In this document: piece by piece, positions 15,872-19,428 of the stretch | How positions within the stretch are numbered: the first letter of the stretch is position 1 | Layout of the letters: every line of letters starts with the position of its first letter | Assembly (NCBI GenBank): GCA_013166775.1 | Contig: JABLTJ010000032.1 | Coordinates: 1-55,546, forward strand | Origin: Promethearchaeati archaeon | GTDB taxonomy: Archaea; Asgardarchaeota; Heimdallarchaeia; Heimdallarchaeales; Heimdallarchaeaceae | Direction: 5' to 3' | Length of the DNA stretch: 55,546 nucleotides | Notes under the pieces: generated by a model | Seen by the model: the letters and a program-made list of their open reading frames with translations, nothing else | Told to the model about the DNA's origin: nothing | Databases searched by the model: none | Made by a program: the position numbers and the translations under genes

Positions 15872-17651
15872 TTATTCTTGACTAAAGAACTGTGTAATCT
15901 TTTCCTTTAATGTCTTAATAGAACTATGTCTTTCAAAGTTGAAAAAACTCGAAAATTTAGTCCCCCTTGGATCAAGCAAGACATGAACTGCTCGATCTCC
16001 TTTATTACGAATCGCTCTCCCAAAACTCTGAGCCAAACGTTGAATCATTGGTATTATTATTGAAAATTCCCTTGCTAATTTTTCTCCAAATTGAACTGCT
16101 AAATCATCAAAAATTAATCGACTTTCTTCTGAGGGAGGTGGGTATGGAAGACTTGTAACAATTATTCCTTTGATTAAACTTCGACCATTGTGAGTAAATT
16201 CCACTCCTTCTGCTATTTTTCCACCTGTAACACATAAGATCAATTTTTTTGATTCAGAACTAGCTACAATGGTTTGAAGTGTAGTAATATCTAGTTCTGG
16301 TGATTCAATAATATCTGGTTTAAGGATCCCTGTCTCTTCTAATTCCTTGATGTACTTATAGCTAGGAGCAAAGACTAAGGTGTGACCCTTTATGGATTCA
16401 GCAATATTCTGTATAGTGCTGCTTACCATGATATAGTATTCAGGTGTTCGATTTTCATATTTAGCATTTAATCTCTGATTCCAAACAACAAAATATCTTC
16501 CCTCAATTTCCTCTTTAGGGGGGAAAACTCGCAAAATTCTTGAATTAGGTAAATTGAAAATCTGTTGGAAAGAGCGAAGTGGTTCAAAGCTCCCTGAAAT
16601 TAAAACCAATCTTTTTGTTTCACTTAACTTATGCAAAATTTCTGAAGGTCTGATGTTAATTATGGAGACTTTCTGAGAATCAGCTAGCAGAGTCTTTTCA
16701 AGACTGGTCATCAAAAAATGATAAACAAGATAAGCATACAATGAAGGGGGATTGTTAAACATAAGTTGAGATTGTAATAAACTGAAAAGCTCTTCTTCGA
16801 GATTCTTCAAGCTGCTTTCATCAAAGTAAGACTCAACAATCTGCTGGTCATTGGTTAACTCAAGTAGTTCCTGGAAAATTTCGTGAGGAAATTCTTCAAT
16901 TGCTTTTTCAATATGTGATAGACTAATGTCCTGGTTTACCGGCTTGTACAAGTTATGAGCTTCATCAATAGCAATGAATATTTGATCTAGTGGAATCCCT
17001 ATACTGTAAAATAAACGAGTAAATAATGCTTGATTTTCAAGAAATGGATAAGAAGTAACAATAATATCAGCTTTTTGCATTAAATAGTAACTGAAAAAAT
17101 ACGGACAATATTTTTCTTGATTTAAACTAGCTAAAATATCTTCTTTGGAGATTACACTTGAATAGGAATGATAAAGATTCTTAACAGCTTCTACAATATC
17201 ATCTCTAGTTACCCTCTGTGTTTTTGCTTTTAAAGGGCATCTTGTCAGATTACAAATATGAGTGTACAACTCTCCAGGGTAATCTTTCTTGGCTTTCAGA
17301 CATAATTCATTCTTACCAAGAAAGGGTATGAAGATTGGAAAATTCTCAAAATGATTTTCTAGCATACTCCAGTGTCTTAGAATCTTGTTATAGATGTTTA
17401 TAGATGTTTGATAGTTCGCGAAGAAAAACGTTTATCTGAGCTTTAGTCCGGACAAAAATAACTACCTTTTCTTCTGGTTTCTTTAATGCAAGTAAAGAGG
17501 ATAAAAGAGCAGCAGTTTTTCCCACTCCAATTTGCGAACTGATTAATGAAGGATTTGATGAAGAAAGGATAGATTGTATTATCTTTTTCTGAGGAGGTTT
17601 CATCTTTTCATAGGGAAATATAATTTTTGCTATCTCCCAACTTTTCTCCAT
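15872..17651 (-). pseudogene. xpd: XPD/Rad3/DinG-family Fe-S helicase split by a 10-bp tandem duplication
   Basis: The 5' part has the Q motif FPY..KPPQ and GVGKT. The 3' part has four Fe-S Cys, IDEAHN, SGS, GGKIAEGVEF and QSFGRAIR. Removing one ATAGATGTTT copy gives a continuous 589-aa frame from ATG 17651. Confidence 0.85.
17390..17409. repeat. Exact 10-bp tandem duplication (ATAGATGTTT)x2
   Basis: Read directly at 17390-17399 and 17400-17409; it lies exactly at the xpd frameshift. Confidence 0.92.
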
Positions 17652-17658
17652 TTCTTTA

Positions 17659-19428
17659 TCAATTTGTAACAAGAGCTTTCCTTCCTTTAATATTATCATA
17701 AATCTTCCTTGCTCTTTTCTCAGGAAATATCTCAGAAAGAAAGCCGTATGATATTTCTTCGAATTTTGTAGCATTCCTCTTAGGATATCTTTCGATAATT
17801 GTCTCTGCTTCTTCCTTTGTGCAATTTGCTAAGAACTGTAAATACCTAACTTGTTCATATGTTTGGTCAGTGTAATTCTTCCTCGAATCCATGTCTCTTC
17901 CTTTTGATAATGCTTGAACAACACTCACCATAGCTTTAGTTCGTGTATCCATCTTTGTTCGCATTCTTTTGTTGAAAAGATTTTGTTGATTCAATACTAG
18001 AGTTTTTTGAATGTCAAGATCTGATAGAAGTTTTCCAAACTTCTTTTCCCTATTTCTGAAACTATGAAAAACTCTTTCTTCATTAGATCTATGAGTGAGA
18101 AGTATATAAATTTCTGAATTATCCTTTGTACTCTGAAGATAATCAGAATAGCGAGACGGATTATTAAAAAAGATTAGAGCATCAGCTTCAATTTGTTCTA
18201 TTTTAGTTGAAGCAAGAATATTTATTTTTCCTTCTTTAAAATGAGTTACTAGTGCTTCCTTCTCCTTAGATTGCTTTCTAGGCAGAATCTTGCATTCCAG
18301 TGCATTATCAGCTAGGTATTCAGGAATTCTCTGAACTACTGATTTGTTATTTGAGATTATAACAAATTTTGAGAAATTTCTTTTGCTTTTCAAATCTAGA
18401 ATAAGCTGTAATAATCTTGAATACTTAGGATGATCTGTTGTTTTTGATAATTTCCGAAGCTCATTGAGAAATTCAGTAAAAATAGGTGTTCGAACAAATT
18501 TACTGTGAAGATTGGATATTTTTTCTTCTTCAATTATGTTTTCGTTTTTATCTTTAAGATTCTCCATATATCTTATAGCTGCTTTTAATCCTGAAGCCTC
18601 AACTAACTCCTTCAAAGTCTGGAAATTCATTAACTCAACCGCTTTTCGAAGTAAAACTCTTTGCTGATCTATTTCGTATTTTGATTTAAGATGCATAACA
18701 AAACTTGGAAATTCTTTCCTTACTGTAAGCGGTCTATTAACTCCTTGATCTTTTAGAAAAGTCTGATATTCTCTAATGTATCTATTAACTTCAAAACAAA
18801 AATCATAAAGCTGCTTGTTTATAGGAACAGTAATAGTTTTTTCTTTATTCAAAGGACTCTTAACATCTTGATCTGGATTGCGATATTCAATTTTAGTGGT
18901 CAAAAGATTCTGGCATACTTCTTGTAAATCTTCCTTTAAACCGAAGAAATAAGAAGTAAAACCAACAATTCTAATGAAAATATTATTCTGATGGAAGATT
19001 TCTAGCATCAATGCTAAAGCATGTTTACCTTTAGTAAGATGAGCTTCATCAATAAGTAAAAGGGAGAAATCTGATGGAACTACTAGCTGTCTTAAGAAAT
19101 CGTTTTTTAGCAAATGTGGAGTGATGAACAAGATGTCTGATTCGACATATTTTTCTTTTCTTTTCTTTATAGAATCTGATGAGAAAACGATATTGAGAGA
19201 ATAGTCACTAAATTCATCTTCTGAAAAAACAGTAAGATTAGTTTTCAATGCTTCCTTCTCTATAGAGATAATTGCAATTTTTTGATGCTTCTCAGTTTTA
19301 AGAAAATACTTTGTAAGAAGTGTCTTAAGGATTGAAGTGTCGAACCACTCAGGTAGAATTAAAAGAGTGTTCTCTTTAGTTGCTGTCCCTAGTATTATTT
19401 GGCTATAAGTATCATAGTTCGAACTCAT
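17659..19428 (-). CDS. Hef/FANCM/XPF-family pseudo-helicase with C-terminal HhH2-like domain, lacking the ERCC4 nuclease
   Basis: Hef-like segments ITPHLLKND, FSLLLIDEAH, IVGFTS, EVCQNL..KIEYR, DHPK. Walker A reads LPEWFDTS and motif VI is absent. The C-terminus YLQFLANCTKEEAETIIERY...PEKRARKIYDNI resembles HhH2. Confidence 0.75.
   Translation of the reverse strand: MSSNYDTYSQIILGTATKENTLLILPEWFDTSILKTLLTKYFLKTEKHQKIAIISIEKEALKTNLTVFSEDEFSDYSLNIVFSSDSIKKRKEKYVESDILFITPHLLKNDFLRQLVVPSDFSLLLIDEAHLTKGKHALALMLEIFHQNNIFIRIVGFTSYFFGLKEDLQEVCQNLLTTKIEYRNPDQDVKSPLNKEKTITVPINKQLYDFCFEVNRYIREYQTFLKDQGVNRPLTVRKEFPSFVMHLKSKYEIDQQRVLLRKAVELMNFQTLKELVEASGLKAAIRYMENLKDKNENIIEEEKISNLHSKFVRTPIFTEFLNELRKLSKTTDHPKYSRLLQLILDLKSKRNFSKFVIISNNKSVVQRIPEYLADNALECKILPRKQSKEKEALVTHFKEGKINILASTKIEQIEADALIFFNNPSRYSDYLQSTKDNSEIYILLTHRSNEERVFHSFRNREKKFGKLLSDLDIQKTLVLNQQNLFNKRMRTKMDTRTKAMVSVVQALSKGRDMDSRKNYTDQTYEQVRYLQFLANCTKEEAETIIERYPKRNATKFEEISYGFLSEIFPEKRARKIYDNIKGRKALVTN

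Follow-up and report, generated by a model that had tools for sequence, protein, structure and literature searches.

In a window of 55,546 nucleotides from a Promethearchaeati archaeon of the family Heimdallarchaeaceae (contig JABLTJ010000032.1, positions 1 to 55,546, of the GenBank assembly GCA_013166775.1; the window below means this whole stretch), we analysed a pair of neighbouring genes that encode a Hef-like pseudo-helicase and an XPD-like helicase, the latter termed XPD2. On the whole, we lean towards the explanation that this pair constitutes a two-gene module of extra repair paralogues that is specific for Heimdallarchaeaceae, in which a catalytically dead Hef-like protein is the partner of XPD2, an iron-sulphur (Fe-S) helicase of 5'-3' polarity. 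The pairing is real, conserved and lineage-specific, and its products probably make up a scaffold-plus-motor repair complex. We infer the functional link between the Hef-like protein and XPD2 from sequence. In our literature search, no paper describing this pair was found.

Both genes are encoded on the minus strand. The Hef-like gene (17659-19428) is an intact open reading frame (ORF) of 589 amino acids that ends with the stop codon TGA (17659-17661). A spacer of 7 nucleotides (17652-17658) separates this stop from the ATG at 17651 that opens the XPD-like gene, and the ORF coordinates agree in this respect with a preliminary description of the locus, which had reported the same distance and the shared strand.

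The archaeal Hef family model NF010337 (PRK13766; curated cut-off 610 bits) matched the Hef-like protein with 123.5 bits over model positions 19-557 of 781, which is far under the cut-off, while the genome's own Hef scored 869.7 bits. The single-sequence match of the protein to archaeal Hef amounted to 65 bits. The nearest solved structure was the helicase domain of Pyrococcus furiosus Hef (PDB 1wp9; phmmer E 4e-17, residues 8-462), with FANCM next. A profile of the Hef-like family scored archaeal Hef at 112 bits, FANCM at 83 bits and human XPF (6sxa) at 13.5 bits (E 0.16). We built an AlphaFold model of the protein on 17 family members (predicted local distance difference test, pLDDT, 81), and the top Foldseek matches of this model were 1wp9 (E 2.4e-25, template modelling scores 0.61/0.75) and the FANCM translocase 9el5. 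The model thus predicts that the protein has the superfamily 2 (SF2) fold of Hef with a thumb-like insertion domain. RecA-like domain 1 (residues 1-200; 18829-19428), which carries degenerate motifs, was placed by alignment to 1wp9 and by the family alignment A1. It is followed by the thumb-like helical insertion domain (residues 201-330; 18439-18828), recognised by helices in the model and by conservation, and by RecA-like domain 2 (residues 331-470; 18019-18438), placed by alignments to 1wp9, the family and canonical Hefs. The thumb-like domain is the best-conserved region, with a mean top-residue frequency of 0.67 versus 0.57-0.61 in the RecA domains and the C-terminal tail, and it contains 18 invariant columns of the family.

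The catalytic motifs of Hef are largely erased from this fold. Motif I, which is PTGLGKT in Hef, is changed to PEWFDTS (residues 26-32), motif III (TASPG) is gone, and the arginines of motif VI (QRxGRTGR) are replaced by the sequence QSTKDN (approximately residues 432-437) with a 5-residue deletion. Motif II is retained as DEAH (127-130) in the window protein and varies across the family, where it reads IDNAH, VDQSH, FANAG and others. Motifs I, III and VI are lost in every Hef-like family member, and canonical Hefs from the same order all retain the full set of ATPase motifs. The family has gained invariant features of its own, including KGKH just after motif II (133-136), THRxxEE in RecA-like domain 2 (445-451), HPK and NQQxxF. 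The ERCC4 nuclease (GDxnERKx3D) gave no Pfam match and no nuclease block in the alignment, and the protein ends about 200 residues short relative to canonical Hef. From these motif losses, the Hef-like protein is predicted to be unable to bind or hydrolyse ATP. The preliminary description had considered the helicase dead, and this holds for all family members; the absence of the nuclease was likewise borne out by the Pfam scan and the alignment.

This inactive form is a property of the whole family, which is small. In a representative library of 1.84 billion proteins we found about 12 Hef-like clusters (counted at 50% identity), of which 10 are full length, all of them dead at the same motifs. 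Library scores of the family were 161 bits or more and then dropped sharply to 155 bits or less, where the canonical Hefs start. The ratio of nonsynonymous to synonymous substitution rates (dN/dS) was 0.115-0.118 for Hef-like pairs with unsaturated dS, and the window ORF is full length, with none of the 68 positions that are invariant in the family alignment A1 changed. By these measures, we take the Hef-like protein to be a non-catalytic protein under purifying selection and not the product of a decaying gene. A dN/dS of about 0.12 despite the catalytic loss argues that the dead protein needs some partner or ligand.

In contrast to the intact Hef-like gene, its helicase partner is broken in this genome, so the window is not the best exemplar of the pair. 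The span from 17651 to 15872 comprises, without the stop, 1777 nucleotides, a number that three does not divide, and hence there is no single open frame. The frame that starts at ATG 17651 runs for 87 codons to a premature TAA (17388-17390), and the remainder of the gene is in another frame. The resulting N-terminal fragment (17388-17651; 87 amino acids) carries the Walker A sequence GVGKT and a Pfam DEAD match of 25.5 bits. The C-terminal part (15872-17389) contains an ORF of 497 amino acids from ATG 17365 with the Pfam domains DEAD_2 (48.3 bits; cut-off 21) and Helicase_C_2 (70.8 bits; cut-off 25.3), and the Arch region is also present in it. Both the premature TAA and the split of the frame are due to an exact 10-nucleotide tandem duplication at 17390-17409 (ATAGATGTTT twice on the plus strand). 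When one repeat copy was deleted in silico, we obtained a stop-free frame of 589 amino acids that is colinear with 11 orthologues through the junction. A close relative from a metagenome (L083; 90% identity over 342 aligned XPD-like codons) has a single copy and a continuous gene. In the tree, the terminal branch of the window XPD-like sequence is 0.16 versus 0.18 for its sister; since it is not longer than the sister's, the lesion is either very recent or an assembly error. The module is probably inactive in this genome, unless the assembly is in error at this point. A programmed frameshift was also considered and rejected, as no slippery heptamer is visible at the site and the lesion is confined to this genome. 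A split of the XPD-like gene shared with relatives was suggested by a database protein of 496 amino acids (P0059), which starts at the same residue as the 497-amino-acid piece of the window, but the gene is continuous in L083, the one close relative that was recovered.

The XPD-like protein has archaeal XPDs as its best PDB relatives. The window sequence shares with the entire XPD2 clade the Walker A motif, DEAHN, motif VI (QSFGRAIR) and the four Fe-S cysteines. The dN/dS of the XPD-like gene was 0.06-0.085 (unsaturated dS), so that it, too, is under purifying selection. Judged by these motifs, XPD2 is an Fe-S helicase of the XPD family with all catalytic motifs. It scored 105 bits with the TIGR00604 (rad3) model, versus 333 bits for canonical XPD (cut-off 246.95). 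The same genome carries its canonical XPD (702 amino acids) on contig C56, while contig C1 encodes a Hef that is canonical and full length (870 bits); both window genes are therefore extra paralogues. In the phylogenetic tree, a single clade (100/99) unites the XPD2 proteins of this family, its sister family and a third one, and the canonical XPDs (97/99) are separate from it. As this clade spans three families, XPD2 is order-wide and older than the Hef-like gene. The XPD partner named in the preliminary description is thus a member of the XPD family, as DEAD_2 and Helicase_C_2 attest, but it is a divergent paralogue, not the housekeeping XPD, and is frameshifted here. A third XPD-family paralogue of 795 amino acids, distant from both canonical XPD and XPD2, occurs in Candidatus Heimdallarchaeum (L082:529-2913, plus strand; G045:C1:2200528-2202912).

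Conservation of the pair was surveyed in 24 other species genomes of the genus. The Hef-like gene is present at full or near-full length in 14 of them (45-54% identity), and in a further genome (G003) no more than a fragment of 40 residues is present, at the edge of a contig. XPD-like genes were found in 16 of the 24 genomes (66-72% identity), and they are intact, encoding about 600 amino acids, in those relatives whose contig covers the whole gene. At least 13 species of the genus have both ends of the pair on one contig, and in all of them the XPD-like gene follows the Hef-like gene on the same strand. The stop-to-stop frames of the pair overlap by 26-38 nucleotides in 12 genus loci; where the gene overlap was worked out, with the first start codon taken as the start, it is about 14 nucleotides. 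A second genus has the same adjacency on one strand and the same 14-nucleotide overlap, at 36% and 56% identity. The adjacency is therefore not unique to this genome. The neighbourhood is stable in the genus and consists of an amidohydrolase, two small genes, the pair, sometimes a membrane protein, DegV and EamA. Beyond the genus, both genes were found in all 5 genomes examined from the other four genera of the family; in one of these genera, they reside on different contigs.

The origin of the Hef-like gene is illuminated by a genome of the sister family (G025), in which a Hef paralogue of 790 amino acids (L066:3575-5944, plus strand; contig C135) is convergent to XPD2 (L066:6447-8207). The motifs of this paralogue are intact (PTGMGKT, DEAH, TASPG, QRMGRTGR). 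It has no ERCC4 match in Pfam, degenerate nuclease motifs and a weak helix-hairpin-helix (HhH) match, and it occurs alongside a canonical Hef (L074) of that genome. In the tree, the sister-family paralogue groups with the Hef-like clade (96/96), and this group is sister to the canonical Hefs of both families (92/92). The topology suggests that the Hef-like gene arose by a duplication of Hef inside one Heimdall order. A likely history is that a Hef duplicate next to XPD2 was first deprived of its nuclease activity; later, in Heimdallarchaeaceae, both the motor and the nuclease domain would have disappeared. Heimdallarchaeia hold a series of inactivation states, namely active Hef, a helicase-active nuclease-dead paralogue and a helicase-dead nuclease-less paralogue, and this series mirrors the kinds of domain inactivation behind eukaryotic XPF and FANCM. 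The preliminary description had seen in the pair a possible intermediate towards the eukaryotic arrangement. This idea is not upheld by the XPF score of only 13.5 bits, the duplication within the order indicated by the tree and the absence of ERCC4. The resemblance to the dead helicase-like domain of XPF is best read as convergence, and we favour parallel evolution over ancestry.

The last 65 or so residues of the Hef-like protein (residues 526-589; 17662-17853) form a five-helix bundle, which the preliminary description had taken for an HhH2 domain. No HhH family was found in a Pfam scan of 15 Hef-like tails, hhalign comparison of these tails with those of canonical Hefs was not significant (probability 0.4%), and the hairpin glycines (GhG) are missing. 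The fold comparison, for which the last 100 residues were modelled separately (pLDDT 74), gave a different picture. In VIA-align, the tail model matched mostly (HhH)2 domains with Z scores of 5.9-7.4, including NusA AR (Z 7.4), Hef 1x2i (Z 6.9; root-mean-square deviation 2.9, 63 residues aligned), FAAP24 (Z 6.8), XPF 2kn7 (Z 6.3) and ERCC1 (Z 5.9). Foldseek returned weak matches (E 0.2-0.7), among them FAAP24 and Aeropyrum pernix XPF, and the C-terminus of FANCM is also among the fold matches. The resemblance to HhH2 is thus seen in the fold and has no counterpart in the sequence comparisons. Some members of the Hef-like family have no tail.

In the mechanism that we propose, the Hef-like protein and XPD2 would be produced together and form a complex. 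Its dead Hef-like subunit would recognise or anchor to branched DNA (for example, forks or recombination intermediates), and XPD2 would supply 5'-3' unwinding. Such a complex would act in the processing of forks and recombination intermediates alongside the canonical Hef and XPD. In a stricter version, XPD2 would have the Hef-like protein as its obligate and dedicated subunit, one that evolved stepwise from an active Hef via a FANCM-like intermediate in the archaeal lineage nearest to eukaryotes; this version is advanced here tentatively and with some doubt. Several points weigh against the proposed module. Binding of DNA by the Hef-like protein is suggested by conservation only. In two further genera, including the closed genomes of Candidatus Heimdallarchaeum, 24-32 kb separate the two genes, which are on opposite strands, so the coupling is not obligatory and adjacency does not extend throughout the family. 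Seven species of the genus have neither gene; however, the five of these that were tested also have no flanking DegV and amidohydrolase genes, and the co-absence therefore says little about linkage and may reflect a difference between clades or in the region. The grouping of the sister-family paralogue with the Hef-like clade joins long branches, which calls for caution about the reconstructed history. Finally, the tail can be regarded, with middling confidence, as (HhH)2-like at the level of the modelled fold only, as Z scores below 8 are not decisive.

Functional independence of the two genes would mean that a Hef duplicate landed beside XPD2 by chance in an ancestor and was kept there by descent. 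Such a scenario would fit the limited extent of the adjacency (two genera and one convergent case in the sister family), the distant placement in two other genera, and the fact that XPD2 predates the Hef-like gene and is found beside different genes in other genomes. It leaves unexplained, however, that the overlap of about 14 nucleotides was kept across lineages at 36% and 56% identity, that no genus of the family has given up either gene, and that a dead protein under the selection described above needs a partner or ligand; we consider it unlikely. The Hef-like protein might instead act on the canonical Hef pathway and not on XPD2, either by pairing with Hef or another protein of the XPF family through its HhH2-like tail or, in the role of a regulator or decoy, by competing for PCNA or forked DNA. 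Proteins of the XPF family dimerise through HhH2 domains, the structures 1x2i, 1z00 and 4bxo are among the fold matches of the tail, and a canonical Hef was found in every genome examined. Nevertheless, several family members have no tail, the Hef-like gene and this genome's short XPF show no co-occurrence, and inspection by eye of the conserved NQQxxF helix revealed no canonical PCNA-interacting peptide (PIP) box, which makes this scenario distinctly improbable.

The broken XPD-like gene, together with the seven congeners that have neither gene, raises the question of whether the whole locus is decaying here and the Hef-like gene is itself a pseudogene remnant. We regard this as very improbable, given a full-length Hef-like ORF with every invariant position of the family alignment kept, and a terminal branch of the XPD-like sequence that points to a very recent or artefactual lesion. 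A defence or mobile-element helicase module, such as the DinG/Csf4 helicase of type IV CRISPR, was suggested by a match of the XPD-like protein to the PADLOC model typeIV_DinG (PDLC01439, 174 bits), by the patchy distribution in the genus and by a nucleotidyltransferase-like ORF upstream in the window. In the control search, however, the housekeeping XPD scored 338 bits with the same model, which is evidently generic, and the Hef-like protein had no PADLOC match. The locus is flanked across the genus by amidohydrolase, DegV and EamA, and nuclease or cas genes are absent nearby. The defence explanation, which we find scarcely credible, was rejected after this control. We also rejected a 'split XPF' composed of the Hef-like protein and a short nuclease-active XPF, as the presence of the short XPF does not track the pair. 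This short XPF of the crenarchaeal type (250 amino acids, intact nuclease motif and HhH2) is encoded in the same genome on contig C103 (75124-75873, minus strand; L002:1378-2127), and it was identified in 9 of 25 genus genomes and in a few genomes of another family.

Several known systems are close to the components of the putative Hef-like/XPD2 complex. Archaeal Hef shares with the Hef-like protein the succession of RecA1, thumb-like insert and RecA2, and is its best match in both sequence and fold; the small C-terminal helical domain of the window protein is similar to the HhH2 of Hef in fold. The window protein differs in having no motifs I, III and VI, no ERCC4 and no HhH2 hairpin glycines. 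The Hef homologue of Thermoplasma acidophilum (taHef) is a natural nuclease-less Hef with SF2's seven helicase motifs, and it binds PCNA via a C-terminal PIP box (PMC4838364). It resembles the window protein in having a helicase core without ERCC4 nuclease, whereas the window protein has dead motifs, represents an additional paralogue and shows no evident PIP box. The N-terminal domain of eukaryotic XPF (6sxa) is likewise a Hef-derived SF2 module that has lost its ATPase function and serves in scaffolding or DNA binding, in a pathway that also uses XPD. However, XPF retains an active ERCC4 nuclease and pairs with ERCC1, while the window protein has no nuclease, and the tree indicates an independent lineage-specific loss in the Hef-like family. 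The FANCM-FAAP24 pair is similar in that FANCM is the second-best match in sequence and fold (9el5) and FAAP24 appears among the fold matches of the tail. FANCM, however, is an active translocase with a degenerate nuclease domain, and in the window protein it is the other way round, as its motor is dead and its nuclease region missing. The FANCM layout is better fitted by the sister-family paralogue (L066:3575-5944), with its active motifs, its HhH and no recognisable ERCC4. As for XPD2, it shares DEAD_2, Helicase_C_2, the four Fe-S cysteines and the helicase motifs with the archaeal XPDs of T. acidophilum (4a15/2vsf) and Sulfolobus acidocaldarius (3crv), but forms a separate order-wide clade and is coupled to a pseudo-helicase gene. 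Two XPD paralogues with distinct roles in one archaeon are known from Haloferax (Rad3a and Rad3b; PMC12873603).

The pair offers a concrete testable complex composed of an XPD-type helicase and a catalytically dead Hef scaffold. We know of no partner for archaeal XPD, and to our knowledge its cellular role is still unclear. If the stricter version of the model is true, XPD2 would be the first archaeal helicase of the XPD family that has a targeting or regulatory partner of its own. This arrangement would be analogous to that of p44 and MAT1 for XPD in TFIIH, or to the scaffold-motor pairs of the Fanconi system.

Several other genes adjoin the pair in the window or in related genomes. A membrane-anchored protein of 289 amino acids (14963-15832, minus strand) is encoded 39 nucleotides downstream of the XPD-like gene; it has hydrophobic segments at its N- and C-terminus and no match in the Pfam scan. 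In roughly half of the genus loci, a homologue of this protein comes after the pair on the same strand, and it is probably outside the module. Upstream of the Hef-like gene, at a distance of 124 nucleotides and on the same strand, an ORF of 123 amino acids (19553-19924) has a weak match to a Polbeta nucleotidyltransferase family (PF18765, E 2.5e-4, under the cut-off), and this nucleotidyltransferase-like ORF is absent from the equivalent position in the other genus loci. TATA-like strings upstream of 19428 were given no weight; the genome is about 68% A+T. Contig C103 of the same genome encodes another SF2 protein of 549 amino acids (14788-16326; L004:1450-3096) with weak similarity to the Hef helicase (66 bits); it has an intact motif I, whereas some changes have occurred in motifs II and VI.

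In Candidatus Heimdallarchaeum, a divergent RadA/Rad51 paralogue is located directly after the Hef-like gene (L067:7579-8667, plus strand), and an rve-type transposase (L067:3855-4790) about 0.6 kb upstream of that Hef-like gene. RadA paralogues also adjoin XPD2 in another family of the order (L073:4288-5589 and L072:7315-8598, both on the minus strand). The RadA and PolB neighbours hint faintly at a recombination or replication-repair setting. In one genome of another family, the gene directly upstream of XPD2, in the same orientation, encodes the family-B DNA polymerase (PolB; L065:3744-6305, plus strand), and other genomes of that family have unannotated proteins of 1105 and 1320 amino acids at the PolB position.

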